Made by a program: the position numbers and the translations under genes. Positions 872 to 27,039 of a stretch of DNA of 64,000 nucleotides are shown here, piece after piece (positions within the stretch are counted from its first letter, which is position 1; each line of letters begins with the position of its first letter). Origin of the DNA: an uncultured Gammaproteobacteria bacterium (GTDB lineage: Bacteria; Patescibacteriota; Patescibacteriia; CAZSQN01); contig CAZSQN010000001.1 of assembly GCA_964609095.1 (NCBI GenBank), positions 86,117 to 150,116 of the forward strand, given 5' to 3'. The notes under the pieces were generated by a model that saw only the letters and a program-made list of their open reading frames with translations, did no database searches and was not told where the DNA came from.

Positions 872-1083
872 TTGTTAGATTGTTGTATTGTCCCGCGTAC
901 GGGATCCCGCTTTGCGGTGATTATATTGGTTTTGCGTTAGATGGCCGGTAGATTGACAAACAGCTTATTTTTTGGTATTATATTTTGTGCATATTTCGTT
1001 CGTTTTCAATAGATTCCGAGTGAGTCGGATGGCTGCCCCCACACCAATCTTAACAACAACTGTGCTTAAAGCACGACTAAAGG

Positions 1084-1534
1084 CGAAGCCGACTTCGTCT
1101 TTATGGGTACTGATATATTAAGTATGTTGTAAAGAATGGTGTGGGGGAGGAAAGTCCGAACATCGCCCCGTAATATACGGGGAAAAGGCAGTCGCTAACG
1201 GCGACGGGCGCAAGGCAAGCGAGAAAAGAGAGGACAGCTGTTCTCTTTTCTCTCCTTGAACGAGGCCACGGATAGTGCAACAGAAAATATACCGCTTGAA
1301 CCCGAGCGAAAGCGAGGGTGAAATCTTGAGCGAAGTCGAAAGACTTCTTCAAGTCAAGTAAGGTTGAAATCGTGAGGTAAGAGCTCACGCGGGACTGTAA
1401 GTGATTACAGCCGTGGAAAACACCTGCCAGATGCAAGGCCAAGAATGGTAGGCCGCACGAGGTATTGAGCAATCAATACCCCAGAGAGATGGTCATCCTT
1501 CGCAGAAATGCGAAGACAGAATTCGGCTTATAGA
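1084..1534 (+). ncRNA. rnpB: RNase P RNA, bacterial type A
   Basis: Conserved blocks GGAGGAAAGTCCG (1146-1160), ACAGAAAATATACCGC, CGAGGGTGAAATC, GGTAAGAGCTCAC and 3' ACAGAATTCGGCTTAT. P1 pairing aagccga(1086-1092)/tcggctt(1521-1527). Overlapping ORF 1101..1472(-) is spurious. Confidence 0.85.
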
Positions 1535-1612
1535 CTCGCTTGGAATTTATTGAGAATGAAATGTGTTTCGCGTTTAGAGTTTTCTAAACCCCAAACCCTA
1601 AACCCTCTTACA

Positions 1613-16087: not shown

Positions 16088-16161
16088 TGGGCACTCCGAG
16101 ATTTGAACTCGGAACGACCCGGTTATGAGCCGGGGGCTCTGACCATTTGAGCTAAGTGCCC
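16088..16161 (-). tRNA. tRNA-Met (anticodon CAT)
   Basis: Reverse complement GGGCACTTAGCTCAAATGGTCAGAGCCCCCGGCTCATAACCGGG...TTCAAATCTCGGAGTGCCCA. Anticodon loop CTCATAA. Confidence 0.8.
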
Positions 16162-16162
16162 G

Positions 16163-16222
16163 GTGCCAGGAAAGGGAGTTGAACCCTCACGGTAGGTGTA
16201 CTACCACAGGATTTTACCTGCC
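16163..16222 (-). pseudogene. tRNA-Leu-like 3' half (anticodon 3' side + long variable arm + T-arm + acceptor 3' strand); no 5' half
   Basis: Aligns segment-by-segment to the 3' half of the adjacent tRNA-Leu(TAA) (AAAATCCTGTGGTAG...GAGGGTTCAACTCCCTT-TCCTGGC-A). The 5' half is replaced by a GC hairpin (16225-16259). Confidence 0.5.
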
Positions 16223-16288
16223 CCGTAGTGAAACGCAAAGCGTTCTACTACGGGGAGTCCCGCGCGCCCCGTACTGAATTTTGATTAG

Positions 16289-16372
16289 TGGGTGAGAAGG
16301 GGATCGAACCCTTACGGTATTGCTACCACGGGATTTTAAATCCCATGCGTCTGCCTATTTCGCCACTCACCC
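16289..16372 (-). tRNA. tRNA-Leu (anticodon TAA), class II with long variable arm
   Basis: Reverse complement GGGTGAGTGGCGAAATAGGCAGACGCATGGGATTTAAAATCCCGTGGTAGCAATACCGTAAGGGTTCGATCCCCTTCTCACCCA. Confidence 0.8.
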
Positions 16373-16829: not shown

Positions 16830-17170
16830 TGGTGGAGGCGCCGGGAGTCGAACCCGGGTCCAGAAGAAGTATAGCCAATGCCCTACGCGCGTATCCCGGA
16901 TTTATCAAGCCCGGGCGGCTCTAGTCCCGTCTTTCCGGAACAGCCAGGACAGCCGGTCTTGCCTTGGAGTAACTGCCCGACTCTCCAAGGCCAGCTTCCA
17001 TTTTCGTCGCCTGATTCAACCCCTAGGAAGCGGCGGGATTGGCAGACGTCCGCCTTAGGCGGAAAACGTGGCATTAAGCCGCGTTTCTCGGGTTGCCCGT
17101 TTTTACAAGGCCTCGGGCGCCTTGGCGCGCGCATTGGTGTAACTTCCCCTGTCGAAACCGTTTCGCCCCC
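16830..17170 (-). ncRNA. ssrA: tmRNA (transfer-messenger RNA)
   Basis: 5' GGGGGCGAAACGGTTTCGACAGGGG and 3' tRNA-like end GGGTTCGACTCCCGGCGCCTCCACCA. Internal tag ORF reads ...GNPRNAA* (ends Ala-Ala-TAA). Overlapping ORFs 16883..17134(-) and 16878..17228(+) are spurious. Confidence 0.85.
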
Positions 17171-17627: not shown

Positions 17628-18377
17628 CTAAGAGCCGTATTTAGCTGCCGCTTCCCAGGCCAGTTCAAAAATGGCCCGCACGGTTTGCGCCAACTCCCTG
17701 CTTTCAATCAGCACGCCAACCAATTTGCCTCTGTATGAGAGAAGAGCAACCCTATCGCCATAAGTGGAGACCTCGCCGGAGAAGGGAAATTTGTCTTTTG
17801 GCACGCGCCGGCCCTCCCATTCTTTGGGAATATCGGTTGGAGGAGCGGAACTGGTATAAATAAATCTTTCTTTTGCTTTGCGCTCCAGAAGTTTTTTGCG
17901 GAACGGATCCACGTGCTCTTTATGCAGGACTTTTTGCGCGTCGTCGGCGGAGAAAATGGAAACAACATCAATATCGCTGACTTTGAGCAAATCTCCGTGG
18001 ATTGCTTCCAGTCCTTCGGCTCCCTCGTATAATCTGACCTTTGGCAATTCTGCCGCTCCGGAGAGAGCGCGCAATTCCGGCAAAATATCGTTCAGCCGGT
18101 GTTCCTTATCGTCAATCGCTCTCCTTTGCGAGTGGAAAAGGGCGCGCAGCCGCTCCGGCGCCTCCGCGATAAAATATCTCTTTTTTCCTTTTTCAAATGT
18201 GGAAATCAGCCCCTTTTTTGAAAGAGAGTCAACCATCACATAAGTCGTGGGGCGATTGATTTGCGCGCGTCTGGCAATCTGCTGGACAGAGGCGGGACCA
18301 AGCGCAAGCGAAGCAAGATAAACTCGCGCCTCTTTTGGCGACAGCCCGATTTCAATCAGTTTTTTATCCAATTCCAT
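17628..18377 (-). CDS. TrmB-family transcriptional regulator
   Basis: N-terminal wHTH of TrmB type (LSPKEARVYLASLALGPASVQQIARRAQINRPTTYVMVDSL) plus C-terminal TrmB-like domain. GTG at 18386 is an alternative start. Confidence 0.7.
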   Translation of the reverse strand: MELDKKLIEIGLSPKEARVYLASLALGPASVQQIARRAQINRPTTYVMVDSLSKKGLISTFEKGKKRYFIAEAPERLRALFHSQRRAIDDKEHRLNDILPELRALSGAAELPKVRLYEGAEGLEAIHGDLLKVSDIDVVSIFSADDAQKVLHKEHVDPFRKKLLERKAKERFIYTSSAPPTDIPKEWEGRRVPKDKFPFSGEVSTYGDRVALLSYRGKLVGVLIESRELAQTVRAIFELAWEAAAKYGS

Positions 18378-18540
18378 ACCCCGCACATAATTTGCTTAAC
18401 GCGGCACATAATTTATGTTATGCGCTGTGATAGTTAGACAAACTATATTTTATTATTCTTTTAAGATGTTCTGCCTCGCTTTTGAACTAATAAACGAAAA
18501 CATAAGCAAGTTATGTGCGGGGCATAATAATTACATCTTA

Positions 18541-21500
18541 TCATTTTTTAAGTACGCCGAGCCAGAGCGCTTCTTCGTCCAGTTCCATTTCCTTAAAATG
18601 TTCCGTCTGAATTTTCCCAAGAATTATTTGGGCGGCTTTGGTGTCCGCCTTTAGTTTATCGGAAAAATTTTCAAAAACGGCTAAGATGGCGGGACCGTCG
18701 GTTTCGTAGGCAAGCGCGATTTGGTCTTTGGGAGTCAGGCCGGCGGCTTTGCGCAGGTCGTTGATATGCCTTGATATTTCGCGGACCATTCCCTCCTGCC
18801 GCAGTTCCGGACTGATAACCGTGTCTAAGGCGATACCAAGCCCGTCGGTTTCCGTAAAGATAATTTCTTTTACGTTGATTTCGTTTTTAAGAATTTCCAA
18901 AAGTTCCGTATCCGGTTTTTTCTTTGTTTTTATCTCCAGCTTTGAGAGAATCTGGCGCACGGGAATTTTGGCCGCGGCGCGCTCTTCAAGAGCCATAGAA
19001 GCAAGGCGGCGGATTGTTTCCATTTCTTCAAGCAGAGTATCGTCTATCAGGCGAGCCTCGTAGTTTGGCCAGTCCTCCAAGTGCACGGAGGCCTTGTCGC
19101 GTTCCGTCTTTAGTTCAAGAAAAAGCGATTCGCTTAAAAACGGGACAAACGGCGCCATAATCTTAGAGACGGATATAAGAACCGTTCTTAACGTCGCGGC
19201 GGCTGATTCGTCTCCGGACTTAAATCTCTCCCGGCTTCTTCGCACATACCAGGTTGAAAGATCGGTGATAAAGTCGGATATGGCTCTGCAGGCCTCCGTT
19301 GGCCGATAGTTGTCTAAATCGGCGGTAACATTTTTGATCAGGCGATGAAGCTTGGAGACGATCCATTTGTCCAGCGCGTGAGCTGATTTGGCCTGCCTGG
19401 AGCCGTTTTTGGGCAAATAGGTTTTTCCAAAAATATGGACATTCCACAGAATTATAAATGTTTTTTTCACCATTTCATCCAAAATATTTTCGTCAAAACG
19501 TTTACTCTCCCCGGGATGATTTAGGGAATACATATACCAGCGGACGGCATCGGCGCCGTATTTGTTAATCACTTCCCACGGGTCAACGACATTGCCTTTG
19601 GATTTGGACATTTTTTGTCCAGCCGCATCCAGCACGTGTCCTAAAGAGACCACATTTTTATATGGCTTGCCCGTCTCCAGGGCGGTGGCGACGGCGAGAA
19701 GCGTGTAAAACCAGCCGCGGGTCTGGTCAATGGCCTCGGCAATGTAGTCGGCTGGAAATGATTCGCCTTTGTCTATTTTATTTTTGTTTTCAAACGGATA
19801 ATGCCATTGCGCAAAGGGCATGGCGCCGGAGTCAAACCAGACATCGGCCACCTCCGCCACCCGCGTCATAACTTTGCCGCACTTTTCACAATCAAGAACG
19901 ATAGAGTCAATGTAAGGGCGGTGCAAGTCAGCCAGGCCGTCGGCATTTCTTGGCAGGGTTTTGAGCTTAAGCGAGCGGACTTCGCCTGTTTTAATATAAT
20001 CGCCGGCGTAAAATCTCTGGACGATTTCGCGGTCTCCATAGCCGCGCAGCGCGCCTTCCAGAACCCAGAAGGGGTCGCCGTGTCCGACAAGCAGAATTTT
20101 TTTATCCCCGTATTTTTCTTCAAGTTCGTGGATAAGCCCCATATGGCGGCGTAGCACGTCGGCCAATGTCTCTCCTCCCTGCGGCGCACGGCTCCACCGC
20201 TCAAATTCTCCAAGCGGGAATTTGGACTTGAATTCGGCCACCGGCAGGCCGTCGTCTTCGCCAAATTCCATTTCGCGCAGGCGATGGTCGTAATTGATAT
20301 GGATGTTTAATTCGCGGGAAACAATCTCCGCCGTTTCTTTGGCGCGGGGGAAATCAGAAGCGATGATGAGGTCAATTTTTTCTTTTTTTAATTTTTTGGC
20401 CGCGGCTCCGGCTTCGGCCCGGCCCTGCTCAGTTAAATGGAAATCGCCGTGAATGTTAGAAGAGGCGATGTCGGCGACATTGGTATCCGCTTGGCCGTGG
20501 CGAAGGAAATAATAAGTGTTGCCCGAAGCCGTCTCCGGGAATTCTTCCAATCCGCCGATAACCTTTTTGTTGCCGCAGGAGCAGGTCCAAATGGGTAGCG
20601 GCGTGCCCCAGTAGCGTTCGCGGGAAAATGCCCAATCCTTAACTCCGCGGAGCCATTCGCCAAATCGCCCCTCCTTTATATATTCCGGAACCCAGTTTAT
20701 TTCGCTGTTGGCTTTAATCAGCTTGTCTTGAAGCTCGGACATCTTGATAAACCAGCTTAGGCGGGCGAAATAAAGGAGAGGCGTGTTGCATCTCCAGCAA
20801 AAAGGATATTCATGCTTGATTTCGCCGGATTTATACAAGAGCCCGCGATTTTGCAACTCGTTAATAATTTCCGGGTCGGCTGTTTTTACGAATTTTCCGG
20901 CCCAGGGACTGACTTCCTTGATAAATTTTCCTTCTTCGTCAACGGTTATGATTATTGGAAGTTTGTTTGCTTTGGCCGCAATCAAATCGTCCTCGCCAAA
21001 AGCCGGAGCGATATGCACCATGCCCGTGCCGTCCTCGGTAGAAACAAAATCAGCCGCAATAACGCGATGCGCCTTCTCAATTGGTTTAACGAAAGAATAA
21101 AGCGGCTCGTATTCCATGCCCGCAAGTTCGCGGCCCTTTTTAATCTCCATAATGTCATATTCTCCTTCCAGGACTTCCAGCCGGGATTTGGCCAAAATCA
21201 TAATTTCTTTTTCTGTTTTTACTTTGACATAATCAATATCTTCGCCAACCGCCAGAGCCACGTTCGCGGGCAGCGTCCATGGGGTTGTTGTCCAGACGAG
21301 GAAGAAGGCGGGCAGTTTGTCTTTGCCCTTAATTTTGAACCTTATATATATGGAAGGGTCTGATGTTTCTTTATATCCCTGCGCCACCTCATGCGAGGAA
21401 AGGGCGGTGCCGCAGCGGGCGCAATAAGGCACGATTTTAAAGTCCTGAAACAAAAGCTTCTTTTTCCATACTTCCTTGATAATCCACCACAAGGATTCAA

Positions 21501-21969
21501 TGTAAGGGGTTTCGTAAGTGATATAAGGATGGTCTAAATCAACCCAAAAGCCGACGCGCTTGGTCAGGCGCACCCATTCGTCAAGGTATTTCCAGACGGA
21601 TTCTTTGCACTTTTGGTTAAAGTAGGCGATGGATTCTTCGGGCGAGTCCTTAAGCTCTTCTATCTGCGGTTTGCCGGAAATGCCCAATTCTTTTTCCACT
21701 TGGAGCTCTACCGGCAGCCCATGCGTGTCCCAGCCGGCTTTGCGCTCTACCCTATAGCCAGCCATGGTCTTGTAGCGGGGGATTAAATCTTTAAAAGCGC
21801 GCGCTTCCACATGGTGGATGCCGGGCCTGCCGTTGGCGGTCGGAGGGCCTTCAAAAAACACAAAATTGCCCTTGGGCGCCTCTTTGGCCAAAGTTTGTTC
21901 AAAGATTTTTTCCTTTTCCCAGTATTCAAGCATTTCTTCTTCTTTTTTAGGAAATATTGATTTATTCAT
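18541..21969 (-). CDS. ileS: isoleucyl-tRNA synthetase with inserted histidine-phosphatase (PGAM-like) domain
   Basis: Class I motifs (PPTANGRPGIHHV; KMSKSKGN). CP1/editing and anticodon-binding regions are typical IleRS. About 200 aa (YYFLRHGQADTN ... LLVGHGDPFWVL) are inserted between the WTCSCG and DLHRPYID zinc-knuckle segments. Start ATG 21969 (MNKSIF); upstream in-frame TTG-initiated extension is unlikely. Confidence 0.85.
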   Translation of the reverse strand: MNKSIFPKKEEEMLEYWEKEKIFEQTLAKEAPKGNFVFFEGPPTANGRPGIHHVEARAFKDLIPRYKTMAGYRVERKAGWDTHGLPVELQVEKELGISGKPQIEELKDSPEESIAYFNQKCKESVWKYLDEWVRLTKRVGFWVDLDHPYITYETPYIESLWWIIKEVWKKKLLFQDFKIVPYCARCGTALSSHEVAQGYKETSDPSIYIRFKIKGKDKLPAFFLVWTTTPWTLPANVALAVGEDIDYVKVKTEKEIMILAKSRLEVLEGEYDIMEIKKGRELAGMEYEPLYSFVKPIEKAHRVIAADFVSTEDGTGMVHIAPAFGEDDLIAAKANKLPIIITVDEEGKFIKEVSPWAGKFVKTADPEIINELQNRGLLYKSGEIKHEYPFCWRCNTPLLYFARLSWFIKMSELQDKLIKANSEINWVPEYIKEGRFGEWLRGVKDWAFSRERYWGTPLPIWTCSCGNKKVIGGLEEFPETASGNTYYFLRHGQADTNVADIASSNIHGDFHLTEQGRAEAGAAAKKLKKEKIDLIIASDFPRAKETAEIVSRELNIHINYDHRLREMEFGEDDGLPVAEFKSKFPLGEFERWSRAPQGGETLADVLRRHMGLIHELEEKYGDKKILLVGHGDPFWVLEGALRGYGDREIVQRFYAGDYIKTGEVRSLKLKTLPRNADGLADLHRPYIDSIVLDCEKCGKVMTRVAEVADVWFDSGAMPFAQWHYPFENKNKIDKGESFPADYIAEAIDQTRGWFYTLLAVATALETGKPYKNVVSLGHVLDAAGQKMSKSKGNVVDPWEVINKYGADAVRWYMYSLNHPGESKRFDENILDEMVKKTFIILWNVHIFGKTYLPKNGSRQAKSAHALDKWIVSKLHRLIKNVTADLDNYRPTEACRAISDFITDLSTWYVRRSRERFKSGDESAAATLRTVLISVSKIMAPFVPFLSESLFLELKTERDKASVHLEDWPNYEARLIDDTLLEEMETIRRLASMALEERAAAKIPVRQILSKLEIKTKKKPDTELLEILKNEINVKEIIFTETDGLGIALDTVISPELRQEGMVREISRHINDLRKAAGLTPKDQIALAYETDGPAILAVFENFSDKLKADTKAAQIILGKIQTEHFKEMELDEEALWLGVLKK

Positions 21970-22077
21970 AACACAGATACGAATAACATCCGAATGAGAT
22001 ACGAATGACGCGAATATTCGGATTATTTGGATGCATTCGTATATAATTCGTATTTCTGTTGTATTGTCGCAAAAATA

Positions 22078-22106
22078 TTGACAAAAAGCAAGATTTGTGA
22101 TATTCT
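22078..22106 (+). promoter_or_regulatory. sigma70-like promoter plus conserved leader, copy B
   Basis: TTGACAAAAAGCAAGATTTGTGATA identical to copy A. Leader is conserved up to the SD. Confidence 0.55.
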
Positions 22107-22167
22107 GACTTATTCGTTCCTTAACCTCAAAACAGGGAAAATCAAACAAATAAGGAGGGTAAGAAAG

Positions 22168-22623
22168 ATGGCGCTAAAAGATTCCCCCGGGATCAGCCTC
22201 CCATTGTGGTTTTTCACATTTAGTAGGGCTGGAAATTCAGAGGACACAGAACATGCACGGCTTTTTGCAAATGGTTTTTGCTTTTGGTCCAACACAAACG
22301 ATACCCCGGAGGACATTGAACGATGCAAAACAATGGCCAAGGAAGAGGAAGCAGTGATATACGTTGTTAGTGTCGAATTTGCATCTGTCCTTAAAGAGCT
22401 TGAGCATAGGGTTTCTGAAGAGGCGAGACTGACAAGAAATCTTTTTTTGTACACCAAAGCTTGGAAAGAAAATCAGGCTAAATGGTGTGAAATTAAACAA
22501 CGAATCAAGATTGTTGCGCAAGATGTCGAAGTATGTGTATGCCAAACTGCTTATTCTCGTGGCCCAATGGGTTCCCTGTTGGAGGGATGGGTTTCTATCT
22601 GGGTAAAGGGGCTTTGCCCATAA
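22168..22623 (+). CDS. hypothetical protein (151 aa), foreign codon usage
   Basis: SD AAGGAGGG 7 nt upstream. Cys/Trp-rich. Followed by terminator 22661-22690. No recognised domain. Confidence 0.55.
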   Translation: MALKDSPGISLPLWFFTFSRAGNSEDTEHARLFANGFCFWSNTNDTPEDIERCKTMAKEEEAVIYVVSVEFASVLKELEHRVSEEARLTRNLFLYTKAWKENQAKWCEIKQRIKIVAQDVEVCVCQTAYSRGPMGSLLEGWVSIWVKGLCP

Positions 22624-22660
22624 AGAAGATGTTGTTTACTTTTTTGATTTGATTTCATTA

Positions 22661-22690
22661 TCCCCCGAGGCATATGCCGAGGGGGTTTTG
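22661..22690 (+). terminator. rho-independent terminator
   Basis: cccccgagg-catatg-ccgaggggg + TTTTG. Confidence 0.7.
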
Positions 22691-22819
22691 TAAATCAGGA
22701 AATATTTTATATACTATTAATCGGGCTTTTACAATCGGTTTTATTTTGAAAAGTTAGGAACACCAGTTACTGTTGTTAGGATTTTCTTTTTGTTAATTTT
22801 TCCTTTACAATGTTCATAT

Positions 22820-24322: not shown

Positions 24323-25183
24323 ATGCCTCACATCCATGACAAAAAAGTAAAAGAATTGGAAGACAAAGCGAACAGGGTTCGCCAGCTTATTATTGAAAGC
24401 TTGGTGGAAGCCAAGAGCGGGCATTCTGCCGGACCTTTAGGCATGGCCGATATTTTTGCCGCGTTTTATTTTCATCTTCTCCATCACAAGCCAAAGAATC
24501 CCAATTGGGCGGACCGCGACCGGCTGATACTTTCTAACGGCCATATTTGTCCAGTGCGTTACGCAACTATGGCTTTGGCCGGATATTTTCCCATAAAAGA
24601 GCTAAAGACGCTGCGCAAATTCGGTACTCGCCTTCAGGGGCATCCGGAGCGTCTGCGCCTGCCGGGAGTAGAAACAACTTCCGGCCCTTTGGGCTCCGGG
24701 CTTGGACAAGCGGCCGGCCTTGCTTATGCCAGCCGGATGGATGGCAAAAAATGGCGGACATACTGCCTGATGAGCGACGCCGAACAAGCGGCCGGCGTGC
24801 ACTATGAAGCAATGCTTTTTGCCGGACGAAACAAATTATCAAATCTTACCGGCGTAATTGACAGGAACAATATCCAGATTGACGGCGTGACCGAAGATAT
24901 TATGCCCTTGGAGCCGCTGCGCGCCAAATATGAGGCCTGCAATTGGGCCGTGTTGGAAGTCGGCGGGCATAACATTGAACAGTTTGTGGACGCGGTTGAG
25001 GAGGCAAAATCCATTTATGAAAAACCGACGGTGATAATAGCGCACACCATTCCCGGACGAGGCGTTTCCTTTATGGAAAAAAAGTACGAATGGCACGGCA
25101 TTCCGCCCAAACCGGAAGAAGCGGAAATCGCGTTAAAAGAATTAAGAACATTGGGAGGAAAAATAAAAAGCGAACACGAATAA
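24323..25183 (+). CDS. transketolase, N-terminal (thiamine-diphosphate-binding) subunit
   Basis: Split-transketolase N-terminal subunit motifs (GHSAGPLGMADI, LSNGHICPVRYA, GSGLGQAAGLAYA). Confidence 0.85.
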   Translation: MPHIHDKKVKELEDKANRVRQLIIESLVEAKSGHSAGPLGMADIFAAFYFHLLHHKPKNPNWADRDRLILSNGHICPVRYATMALAGYFPIKELKTLRKFGTRLQGHPERLRLPGVETTSGPLGSGLGQAAGLAYASRMDGKKWRTYCLMSDAEQAAGVHYEAMLFAGRNKLSNLTGVIDRNNIQIDGVTEDIMPLEPLRAKYEACNWAVLEVGGHNIEQFVDAVEEAKSIYEKPTVIIAHTIPGRGVSFMEKKYEWHGIPPKPEEAEIALKELRTLGGKIKSEHE

Positions 25184-25191
25184 GCAGAGCT

Positions 25192-25902
25192 ATGCCGGTA
25201 TCAAAGTTTAGAATCTTAAGGTATTTGCTGATAATTGCCGCCTCCATGGCTGCGGCGCTTCTTTTTCCCGTTTTGGAAGAAACGGAATCCAATCCCGATC
25301 CGGCGCTTTGGATTCTGGCTATTTTAATCGCCTTTTTAATTGACAGAGCCATGGAGAGAAAAAGGGCTTTGATGGCCAGCGTGGAAATAGAGCTCTCACG
25401 GATGCGGCGTTTAAGCCATCTTGTTCATGGCCTGGGCGCTTCCCAATGGCGTGAAAAGTTAGAATCCTCCATTTCTTTTTATCATAAAAAAGTCGCGGCA
25501 GATTTTTTTGATTACAAAAACGCGTTAACTGATTTTAGGAAAATAACTCATTTAATTTATAAATTTGAACCGCAAAACGGCCGCGAGGAAATATTGTGGG
25601 AGGAGCTGCTGCAAACCACCCGCGATTTGGCGCTGGAGCGGCAGAATATAAAAGAACATCTTGCAAGGCGGCTTTCATGGTACAGCTGGCTTATCGTGGC
25701 AACCATTGCTTTTTTTGTCGCAATTTTGCTTCTTCTTGGCAGAAGCGATATTTTGGCGTCTCGTTTGACTGCCGGATTGGGCATAGGCAGTTTGCTTTTG
25801 GCTTTGGATCTGCTTGCCTTGGTTAATAAAACATCAAAGATAGAACTTCTGGAGCTTCAGAAGATGTATGAAGACAATCTTTCGTCAATGGAGAGAAAAT
25901 AA
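25192..25902 (+). CDS. hypothetical membrane protein
   Basis: 236 aa with 3-4 predicted TM helices. Start at MPVSKF; the ORF's upstream extension overlaps the tkt N-subunit gene. Confidence 0.5.
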   Translation: MPVSKFRILRYLLIIAASMAAALLFPVLEETESNPDPALWILAILIAFLIDRAMERKRALMASVEIELSRMRRLSHLVHGLGASQWREKLESSISFYHKKVAADFFDYKNALTDFRKITHLIYKFEPQNGREEILWEELLQTTRDLALERQNIKEHLARRLSWYSWLIVATIAFFVAILLLLGRSDILASRLTAGLGIGSLLLALDLLALVNKTSKIELLELQKMYEDNLSSMERK

Positions 25903-26010: not shown

Positions 26011-27039
26011 GTGGCATGGGGTATGACAGGCATCAATCCAAAAATGAAACTTGTTTCCAACTGGAATGATTTATCCAAATTGGAGCAGAAGCCGACGCGC
26101 GACGGCTATGGCGAAGGCGTGGTTATTGCCGGAGAAGCTGACAAAAATATTGTCGTGCTCTGCTGCGACCTCACGGAATCAACCCGCTCGCTCGCTTTTA
26201 AGAAAAAATTTCCGGAACGGTTTATTCAGTTGGGTGTCTCCGAACAATCAATGGTGGTGATTGCCGGCGGTTTGGCTTTGGCCGGCAAAGTGCCGTGGAT
26301 TTCTTCTTACACTATGTTCTGCCCGGGCCGCGCTTGGGAGCAGGTGCGCACCAATCTCGCCTTGAATGAGGTCAATGTTAAAATCGCCGGCGCGCACTCC
26401 GGTGTTTCTGTCGGGCCGGATGGCGCCACGCATCAGGCAATAGAAGATATTGCCATTATGCGTTGCATTCCAAAGATGACCGTGGTGGCTCCTTGCGATA
26501 TGATAGAAACGCGAAAAGCCGTTGTCGCCCTCTCTAAGGCGATTGGTCCGGCGCATATCCGTTTTGCGCGGGAGAAGACGCCGGTATTTACGAGCGAAGA
26601 AACGCCATTTATTCTTGGCAAAGCAGAAATTTTCCGCGACCCTTCGATAAACTCAGGGCGAGCGGCAGATGTGGCTATAATTGCTTGCGGGCCGCTCGTA
26701 CATAACGCGCTGCTGGCGGCGGAAGAATTATCCAAAAAGAAAATCCAGTGTATGGTGGTGAATAACCACACCATCAAGCCGATGGATGAGAAAACGATTA
26801 TTTCTGTTGCCAAGCGTTGCGGCGCGGTAGTTACGGTGGAAGAGCATCAGATAATGGGCGGCTTGGGAGGAGCCGTGGCGGAAGTATTGGCGAAAAATTA
26901 TCCCGTGCCAATGGAATTTGTCGGCGTGCAAGACAGATTTGGCGAATCAGGCAACCCCAATGAATTGATTGAGTATTTCGGCATGGGAGTTAGCTCCATA
27001 GTTGAAGCGGTAAAAAAAGTATTAAAACGGAAAAAATAA
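26011..27039 (+). CDS. transketolase, C-terminal (pyrimidine-binding) subunit
   Basis: Transketolase pyrimidine-binding and C-terminal domains (GVSEQSMVVIAGGLALAGKVPW, GPDGATHQAIEDIAIMR). Confidence 0.85.
   Translation: MAWGMTGINPKMKLVSNWNDLSKLEQKPTRDGYGEGVVIAGEADKNIVVLCCDLTESTRSLAFKKKFPERFIQLGVSEQSMVVIAGGLALAGKVPWISSYTMFCPGRAWEQVRTNLALNEVNVKIAGAHSGVSVGPDGATHQAIEDIAIMRCIPKMTVVAPCDMIETRKAVVALSKAIGPAHIRFAREKTPVFTSEETPFILGKAEIFRDPSINSGRAADVAIIACGPLVHNALLAAEELSKKKIQCMVVNNHTIKPMDEKTIISVAKRCGAVVTVEEHQIMGGLGGAVAEVLAKNYPVPMEFVGVQDRFGESGNPNELIEYFGMGVSSIVEAVKKVLKRKK

Follow-up and report, generated by a model that had tools for sequence, protein, structure and literature searches.

A histidine phosphatase domain between the zinc-knuckle halves of a type-2 isoleucyl-tRNA synthetase from the Parcubacteria

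Few enzymes have been studied as thoroughly as the aminoacyl-tRNA synthetases (aaRS), whose accessory domains usually point to editing, regulatory or moonlighting functions. For isoleucyl-tRNA synthetase (IleRS), the closest solved structures to the protein described here are the type-2 enzymes (IleRS2) of Priestia megaterium (8C8U-8C8W) and Thermus thermophilus (1ILE), to which it is homologous over its full length (E ~1e-249). The CP3 subdomain of IleRS, as defined in the Candida structure, is the segment from CP2 to the second half of the Rossmann fold; it bears a zinc motif in Thermus-type IleRS and its topology varies among lineages (PMC7191050). A GXHH form of the class I signature is a non-canonical but accepted variant in IleRS2, for which a link with mupirocin hyper-resistance has been described (Brkic et al. 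2023, PMC10485003). In the solved or described IleRS2, CP3 holds a small beta/alpha element only, whereas the ileS gene examined here, which lies on the minus strand of a 64,000-nucleotide stretch of an uncultured bacterial contig (hereafter, the window), encodes a phosphatase fold of ~190 aa between the two halves of the zinc knuckle. The acquisition of accessory catalytic domains by IleRS is already known as a kind of event, but a histidine phosphatase guest is undescribed in the literature that we searched: no description of such a domain in any aaRS was found in full-text literature searches or in the AARS Online domain catalogue. A preliminary description of this DNA, made by reading the sequence, had likewise known of no aaRS with an embedded phosphatase, and neither the full-text literature nor the 2024 aaRS domain catalogue contradicts it. 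The sequences themselves are already public in many copies, with automatic Pfam labels.

The insert, its catalytic residues and the flanking halves of the zinc knuckle are located as follows, with positions counted in the window and residues in the predicted protein.

20572..20589, minus strand: first half of the CP3 zinc knuckle, WTCSCG (Cys463, Cys465), from the translation
19936..20529, minus strand: histidine phosphatase insert with short linkers, aa 481-678 (~198 residues), from alignment against insert-less orthologues
20497..20502, minus strand: R490-H491 of the RHG motif (phosphate-binding Arg and nucleophilic His), invariant in 114/114
20344..20346, minus strand: R542, second Arg of the phosphate pocket, invariant in 114/114
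20272..20274, minus strand: E566, putative proton donor, E in 87/114 and D in 27/114, nothing else
20080..20082, minus strand: H630, second catalytic His (VGHGDPFW), invariant in 114/114
19876..19929, minus strand: CP3 re-entry DLHRPYIDSIVLDCEKCG with the second half of the zinc knuckle (Cys694, Cys697), from the translation

The limits of the insert were taken from an alignment of the 120 best homologues, each representing a protein cluster; six of these lack the insert and have a linker of 10-25 residues in its place, and the other 114 are the insert-bearing sequences to which the counts above refer. The preliminary description had reported about 200 extra residues between the zinc-knuckle segments at 19914-20529, coordinates that correspond to aa 481-686. 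Alignment with the six insert-less orthologues bears out an insertion of that size at aa ~481-678, and the strings that had been quoted (WTCSCG, the RH pair, H630, DLHRPY, DCEKCG and KMSKS) are all present in the translation where they were said to be, with DLHRPY at 19912-19929 and DCEKCG at 19876-19893. As the insert separates WTCSCG from the re-entry segment, it follows from the definition of CP3 that the phosphatase is grafted inside this zinc-binding subdomain.

The identity of the insert is supported by both profile and fold comparisons, as had been anticipated when it was first called a histidine phosphatase. The His_Phos_1 model (PF00300) matches aa 487-643 of the whole protein with E=1.4e-36 (126.5 bits vs a cut-off of 21.7) and the excised insert with E=5.9e-38 (130.9 bits). 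The residue set of branch-1 histidine phosphatases (R490-H491-G492, R542, H630 and E566) is complete, and the R, H, R, H pocket, whose integrity had been singled out for checking, is intact and without exception among the 114 homologues. An AF2 model of the insert, built from a 31-sequence alignment, reached a pLDDT of 96.4 and a pTM of 0.92, and Foldseek assigned it the phosphoglycerate-mutase-like alpha/beta fold with probability 1.00 (TM 0.75-0.78 to 6s2q, 4qih, 1h2e and 2a6p); the matches include GpgP (Rv2419c), PhoE, iPSP1, CobC and a histidine phosphatase of the riboflavin pathway, with TM about 0.77. By sequence, the nearest solved relative is PhoE (1EBB/1H2E, E=3e-30). Several narrower family assignments were tried and rejected, including those of the mutases: dPGM (TIGR01258) scored 41.3 vs 81.7 bits and aligned with insert residues 17-124 only, the archaeal short dPGM (NF038349) 83.4 vs 225, alpha-ribazole phosphatase CobC (TIGR03162) 85.7 vs 162.9, PspA 71 vs 350 and SixA 36 vs 74.5. 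The original term "PGAM-like" therefore holds at the level of the superfamily but not of the mutase families, and "PhoE/CobC-like phosphatase" is the better wording. By sequence and predicted fold alike, the insert is a genuine histidine phosphatase domain of branch 1, of the short PhoE/CobC-like type and no mutase, and its conserved residues suggest that it is probably catalytically active.

In an AF2 model of the full-length protein (pLDDT 92.0, pTM 0.85), both junction blocks have a pLDDT of 93-96, which suggests fixed packing of the insert on CP3. The domain is thus predicted to sit rigidly on CP3, with its base clamped by the two zinc-knuckle halves. Such packing could also be expected of a regulatory or structural module without turnover, which might sense a phospho-metabolite, dephosphorylate IleRS or a partner, or simply serve as a scaffold that replaces the core of CP3. 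The structural variation of CP3 between IleRS lineages would agree with this, as would the fact that some family members act on phosphoproteins, for example SixA, of which the insert is a weak NCBIfam match. We regard a module of this kind as quite improbable, since the full catalytic set is kept in 114/114 homologues and in the free-standing family described below, as expected of an enzyme and not of a scaffold, and since the SixA score is far under its cut-off.

The architecture is not peculiar to the window. PF00133 and PF00300 occur together in 114/120 of the best protein clusters, and when GTDB species genomes were scanned with an alignment of five closer insert sequences, at least 357 relatives were found. 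Among the 80 best GTDB species loci, 78 encode the N-terminal core, the insert and the C-terminal core in one open reading frame (ORF), several of them in complete genomes. A survey of IleRS from the candidate phyla radiation, which the preliminary description had proposed, thus finds the insert to be widespread. The titles of the GTDB records name Uhr-, Colwell-, Taylor-, Wolfe-, Nomura-, Yonath-, Lloyd-, Terry-, Wildermuth-, Jorgensen- and Giovannonibacteria, as well as Paceibacterota and Minisyncoccia, and the titles "uncultured Gammaproteobacteria" and "Candidatus Saccharibacteria", which belong to automated bins, are probably unreliable. When 1.84 billion cluster representatives were searched exhaustively with the insert profile, 911 were recovered at E<=1e-30, although some of the ~190-260-aa "free" proteins among them may be fragments from short contigs. 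An insert-only query of a word-indexed protein database retrieved no IleRS-embedded copies, whereas the exhaustive profile search does recover them.

This recurrence also disposes of an artefact. An assembly chimera, a frameshifted gene pair or a recent mobile insertion might be suspected from the GC content of the insert, which is slightly above that of the remainder of the gene (0.532 vs 0.482; GC at third codon positions 0.58 vs 0.55). Against this, the ORF is unbroken, independent assemblies show the same junctions, in 78 species genomes and in over 100 protein clusters, and the divergence of the insert follows that of its host, with mean identities to the query of 40% for the insert and 62% for the core (r=0.73). 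A chimera or mobile element is ruled out by the recurrence in independent genomes, and we assign practically no probability to an artefact of any of these kinds. The recurrence of one architecture in 78 independent species genomes shows the insert to be a true domain insertion, as first proposed.

The six insert-less sequences form one clade, which is sister to the clade of the query and nested among insert-bearing sequences, and their genes are syntenic with the window, with rpiB-rpe-transketolase upstream and divergent and ruvA-FemAB downstream. The nested position and the same synteny point to secondary loss. The insert is therefore old and vertically inherited across the Parcubacteria/Paceibacteria, and it has been lost in one clade.

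Apart from the insert, the host gene has the following features.

18541..21969, minus strand: ileS, type-2 IleRS with insert, 1142 aa plus stop (ORF, TIGR00392, identity to P0001)
21811..21822, minus strand: class I signature G-I-H-H, the GXHH form of HXGH (translation)
20803..21378, minus strand: CP1 editing domain, aa 198-389, with motifs WTTTPWT and GTG..H...P..G..D (matches to structures 1wk8 and 1wny)
19600..19614, minus strand: KMSKS loop (translation)
18952..19371, minus strand: anticodon-binding helical domain, aa 867-1006 (Pfam Anticodon_1, E=4.4e-29)
18547..18894, minus strand: C-terminal IleRS2-type domain DUF5915, aa 1026-1141 (PF19302, E=5.9e-19)

An uninterrupted minus-strand ORF (18541..22149) spans the region, and its most likely start is the ATG at 21969. 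The resulting 1142-aa product is identical to an NCBI protein (P0001) from a metagenome-assembled genome of Candidatus Uhrbacteria (112,823-bp contig). Its name at NCBI is "class I tRNA ligase family protein" only, and the phosphatase-in-IleRS architecture would account for such sparse naming of these proteins. The NCBIfam model of ileS (TIGR00392) scores 901.8 bits vs a cut-off of 621.4, in two stretches broken by the insert, and Pfam finds tRNA-synt_1 in two parts, His_Phos_1, Anticodon_1 and DUF5915 in the whole protein. In an alignment of 77 homologues, H53 of the GIHH signature is invariant and G50, I51 and H52 are conserved in at least 90%, with GIHH nearly invariant throughout the aligned Parcubacteria IleRS family. 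Also invariant are the editing-site residues T227-T229, W231 and D328, Cys463 of the first zinc-knuckle half (Cys465 being at least 90% conserved), D681, H683, D688, C694 and C697 of the CP3 re-entry, and K786, M787, S788 and K789 of the KMSKS loop. The TIGR00392 score, GIHH, KMSKS, WTTTPWT, D328 and Anticodon_1 together identify the protein as an isoleucine-tRNA ligase. The host had been called a complete IleRS, and its editing, KMSKS and anticodon-binding parts are indeed all found; the "HIGH-like PGIHH" is present as well, with the nuance that the GXHH signature had already been described for type-2 IleRS. Membership in the acquired mupirocin-resistance enzymes MupA/MupB (NF000257, NF000258) was rejected, with scores of 785-789 bits vs 1900, and a second ileS was not found within the 64-kb window. 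The gene is a type-2 (GXHH) ileS and probably the housekeeping one.

Outside IleRS, the insert subfamily also forms a large family of free-standing proteins of ~190 aa, whose genes we term hp and in which the catalytic set is kept. A profile of the free form collected 2184 clusters at E<=1e-20, and the top 120 are all single-domain proteins of ~190 aa. On four contigs (L001-L004), the gene of the free protein closest to the insert (P0121, 43% identity over its full length) immediately precedes an insert-less ileS, with a 10-nt overlap. In these contigs, a pair of genes resembling a diversity-generating retroelement (a bAvd-like ORF and a reverse transcriptase; 1-1336 in L001) lies directly upstream of hp-ileS. 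Free hp genes abut or overlap an insert-less ileS in 4/4 cases on long contigs, in the order argS-(x)-hp-ileS-(x)-recO, and argS-hp-ileS-recO is the typical order in lineages with a free hp. A wider metagenome survey covered 80 loci, 7 embedded and 73 free, with 64 of the free loci being informative. Among the latter, ileS starts within ~25 nt of the hp stop in 44/64 and the arrangement hp-hp-ileS occurs in 6/64, which together make 50/64 (78%); likewise, hp adjoins ileS in two Moraniibacteriota genomes (L086/L087). The hp-hp-ileS loci (L138, L148, L166, L168, L170 and L174) mirror the tandem double inserts of some IleRS. The free phosphatase sequences have diverged to about 40-50% identity, yet adjacency to ileS with overlapping stop and start is kept at this majority of informative loci.

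The position and number of the embedded domains vary as well. In one IleRS (P0324), the domain follows the "SGxMPYAxxHYPF" loop, at ~aa 727 of the query, and scores within the range of the subfamily, and in three others (P0219, P0248 and P0315) it lies at ~aa 855-860, where the anticodon-binding domain adjoins. Two tandem copies are present in CP3 of four further IleRS (P0235, P0285, P0323 and P0333), and six independent contigs, the longest of 1.06 Mb, carry the double-insert cluster. A truncated valyl-tRNA synthetase (ValRS; P0215; NF004349, 411 bits; ENA contigs <=3.9 kb) carries four His_Phos_1 domains, all with RHG, one of which interrupts the N-terminal core, with three in tandem beyond it. 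The copies in multi-copy proteins are more divergent (~100-120 bits each), and all keep RH[GA] and the second His. The free gene beside ileS, the several insertion sites and the tandem copies, taken together, indicate that the association of phosphatase and IleRS is ancient and selected.

Fusions to other partners were also encountered. The same phosphatase subfamily occurs at the C-terminus of arginyl-tRNA synthetase (ArgRS) and of a Sua5/YrdC (TsaC) domain (P0256 and P0300). At one locus (L096), the argS stop is 2 nt from the hp start; the set of fusions and adjacencies further includes L097 and L137, and in L137 an Ogt-Sua5 gene comes after hp. In embedded and free lineages alike, the gene usually found next upstream of ileS is argS, and the TsaC fusion comprises a single 3.7-kb contig and one adjacency (L137). 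A GMP-synthase ATP-PPase domain has also been seen fused or adjacent to hp, the TsaC and GMP-synthase links amounting to one or two loci each. As signs of a general partnership with adenylating enzymes, the ArgRS fusion was downgraded, argS-(hp)-ileS being general synteny, and the TsaC fusion was set aside as one short contig plus one adjacency. From gene order, the ArgRS fusion appears to be a fusion of neighbouring genes, and that to TsaC is probably the same kind of event.

These links bear on the proposal that the domain is a tethered pyrophosphatase, which would hydrolyse the pyrophosphate (PPi) released in activation, pull the reaction forward and replace a missing soluble pyrophosphatase. 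IleRS, ArgRS, TsaC and the GMP-synthase ATP-PPase domain all convert ATP to AMP and PPi, and some branch-2 histidine phosphatases cleave phosphoanhydrides. Despite this, the ArgRS link is explained by synteny and the others are as rare as noted above, and PPi is, to our knowledge, no substrate of the close homologues. Furthermore, in one Patescibacteria genome (L081, 4061-4543), a family-I pyrophosphatase gene (PF00719, 185.7 bits) shares ~15 nt with the beginning of a phosphatase-bearing ileS; the presence of both a canonical ppa and such an ileS in one genome weakens the idea of a missing pyrophosphatase. Our literature search on Parcubacteria pyrophosphatases found nothing relevant. We consider a pyrophosphatase very improbable.

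Based upon these features, the explanation that we favour as a whole, with moderate confidence, combines the identity of the insert as a PhoE/CobC-like phosphatase, its activity as an enzyme, a coupling of its task to IleRS and an origin from the neighbouring hp gene. That the phosphatase serves a job coupled to IleRS, and not an independent one, appears somewhat better than an even proposition from gene order and sequence comparison, because translationally coupled adjacency persists at ~40-50% identity and because internal insertions have arisen repeatedly. Mechanistically, His491 would attack a phosphate held by R490, R542 and H630, with E566 protonating the leaving group, and the inserted domain would act as a phosphomonoesterase. 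The nearest characterised relatives all use small phosphomonoesters, including the nucleotide-like alpha-ribazole-5'-P (CobC), and the broad specificity of PhoE includes nucleotides. By analogy, we tentatively suggest that the substrate may be a small phosphomonoester of the adenosine-nucleotide type made or bound at the synthetic site, candidates being AMP, another nucleoside monophosphate or a 2'/3'-phosphorylated adenosine. Its attachment to IleRS could then allow a product or inhibitor to be cleared locally. The preliminary description had named, as possible functions, hydrolysis of a nucleotide or phospho-intermediate and moonlighting in signalling.

As for the origin, an hp-ileS unit could have been duplicated in tandem and then trimmed by deletions to ileS-N / hp / ileS-C, which would have placed the phosphatase within the synthetase. 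We infer this to be the most economical route, and it would also account for the differing insertion points among lineages. A simple read-through after loss of the stop codon would be expected to yield an N-terminal fusion of hp to IleRS, and none was encountered among 160 loci.

Several observations weigh against the favoured explanation. Firstly, 14/64 of the informative free hp genes (22%) have no ileS within at least 1 kb downstream and have variable neighbours. Secondly, the insert-less clade consists of close orthologues without an hp gene within 6 kb, so that IleRS must be able to work without the domain in cis. Thirdly, a neighbour-joining tree of the phosphatase domains is poorly resolved and does not fix the direction or number of the transitions from free to embedded. 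With regard to substrate, the hydrolysis of AMP has nothing specific to isoleucine, and it looks wasteful in organisms of the candidate phyla radiation, which depend on nucleotide salvage. Lastly, the IleRS structural literature that we searched gives no functional role for CP3.

Some of these observations are what would be expected if the phosphatase had merely hitch-hiked with ileS. It would then be a general small-molecule phosphatase unrelated to aminoacylation that shares an operon with ileS; in-frame internal fusions would have been neutral products of duplication and deletion in a streamlined genome, kept as both activities are needed. The closest relatives are indeed broad or metabolic phosphatases, one clade lost the insert without an adjacent replacement, more than a fifth of the free genes lie elsewhere among unrelated neighbours, and the ArgRS fusion, and plausibly that to TsaC (L137), follow from adjacency. 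Four considerations oppose it: the overlap or adjacency of hp and ileS is kept in most informative loci despite the divergence of the phosphatase; insertion recurs at three or more internal sites of IleRS, in tandem and in ValRS; loss of a stop codon would yield the N-terminal fusion that was not seen; and the insert is predicted to be packed rigidly on CP3. Hitch-hiking is the main rival, and we allow it a substantial minority share of the probability.

A second way in which the phosphatase could serve the synthetase, other than the favoured clearance of a small phosphomonoester, would be to act on the tRNA end. In this case, it would strip a 2'/3'-phosphate, a cyclic-phosphate-derived phosphate or a pyrophosphate from A76 of tRNA(Ile) before charging, the source being damage, toxin modification or a processing remnant, and the synthetase would contain its own repair or quality control. 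The synthetase that bears the domain binds the CCA end, toxins that pyrophosphorylate tRNA CCA ends exist, and the hp neighbourhood is rich in translation genes (argS, infC-rpmI-rplT, smpB and recO). A more distant relative (P0124) also lies 782 bp upstream of a gene of the 2H/CPDase family, with one gene between them. However, no characterised branch-1 histidine phosphatase recovered as a close relative acts on RNA ends, nor is any other known to do so; the closest homologues use small substrates, and the idea does not explain why only IleRS, and rarely ValRS, should need such a step. We therefore consider a tRNA-end phosphatase unlikely. It is somewhat less doubtful, but still far from probable, that the phosphatase is an unrecognised step mechanistically part of tRNA(Ile) charging in the Parcubacteria, for which dephosphorylation of the tRNA 3' end is one possibility and removal of a phosphorylated adenosine compound blocking the synthetic site is another. 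If this were true, aminoacylation in a major bacterial radiation would depend on a histidine phosphatase embedded in or bound to an aaRS, and the free hp product would be an obligate IleRS subunit in sister lineages.

In a major uncultured bacterial radiation, hundreds of species possess a complete and evidently selected phosphatase that is built into, or translationally coupled to, an essential synthetase. Following Rosetta-stone logic, these arrangements predict a physical and functional partnership of IleRS and the phosphatase. They also offer a natural series for the evolution of domain insertion, with a free gene, three insertion sites, tandem copies and secondary loss, and they may help to show how nucleotide by-products, damaged tRNA or inhibitors are dealt with during translation in reduced episymbiotic cells.

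Some further observations concern the surroundings of ileS in the window. Transketolase is split on the plus strand into an N-terminal gene (24323-25183) and a C-terminal gene (26011-27039), with a bestrophin-like ORF (25090-25902, plus strand) between the halves; the insert-less relatives also have split transketolase genes, and one has a DUF4349 gene between the halves. The RNA genes comprise a class A RNase P RNA (1080-1546, plus strand), tmRNA (16830-17170, minus strand) and two tRNA genes (16088-16372, minus strand). The interval from ileS to ruvA contains a TrmB-like regulator (17628-18386, minus strand) together with the tmRNA and tRNA genes; in the insert-less relatives, no genes are called there. 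The divergent intergenic region between ileS and rpiB (22150-22790) is AT-rich (GC 0.33-0.39) and reaches ~0.8 kb from the ATG at 21969; it contains unsupported ORFs only, and an Rfam scan at gathering thresholds was empty there, no search having been aimed at regulatory RNA.

Comparison with the closest described systems places this protein between several of them. The solved IleRS2 structures resemble the present IleRS with Foldseek TM scores of 0.79-0.88 (normalised to target), and both have a Zn-binding CP core, CP3, an editing domain, KMSKS, an IleRS2-type C-terminal domain and GIHH. PhoE (YhfR, Geobacillus stearothermophilus), CobC, GpgP and iPSP1 have the same fold and the same R-H-R-E-H set as the insert, which also shares with the PhoE/CobC group the short form without the C-terminal tail of mutases. 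Whereas those proteins are free-standing metabolic enzymes, the present subfamily occurs inside IleRS or in an operon with its gene. The bifunctional RNase H/acid phosphatases (PRK07238, Rv2228c type), in which a CobC/PhoE-like phosphatase is likewise joined to a nucleic-acid enzyme, provide the best NCBIfam match of the excised insert (89.2 bits, far under the cut-off of 326), but there the fusion is terminal and the partner is RNase H, in contrast to an internal insertion into IleRS. Finally, an IleRS with a GNAT domain (NCBIfam NF040702, ileS_w_GNAT) is a precedent for the gain of an extra catalytic domain by IleRS; the present protein scores 347 bits against its cut-off of 1999, and the two differ in both the fold and the chemistry of the accessory domain.

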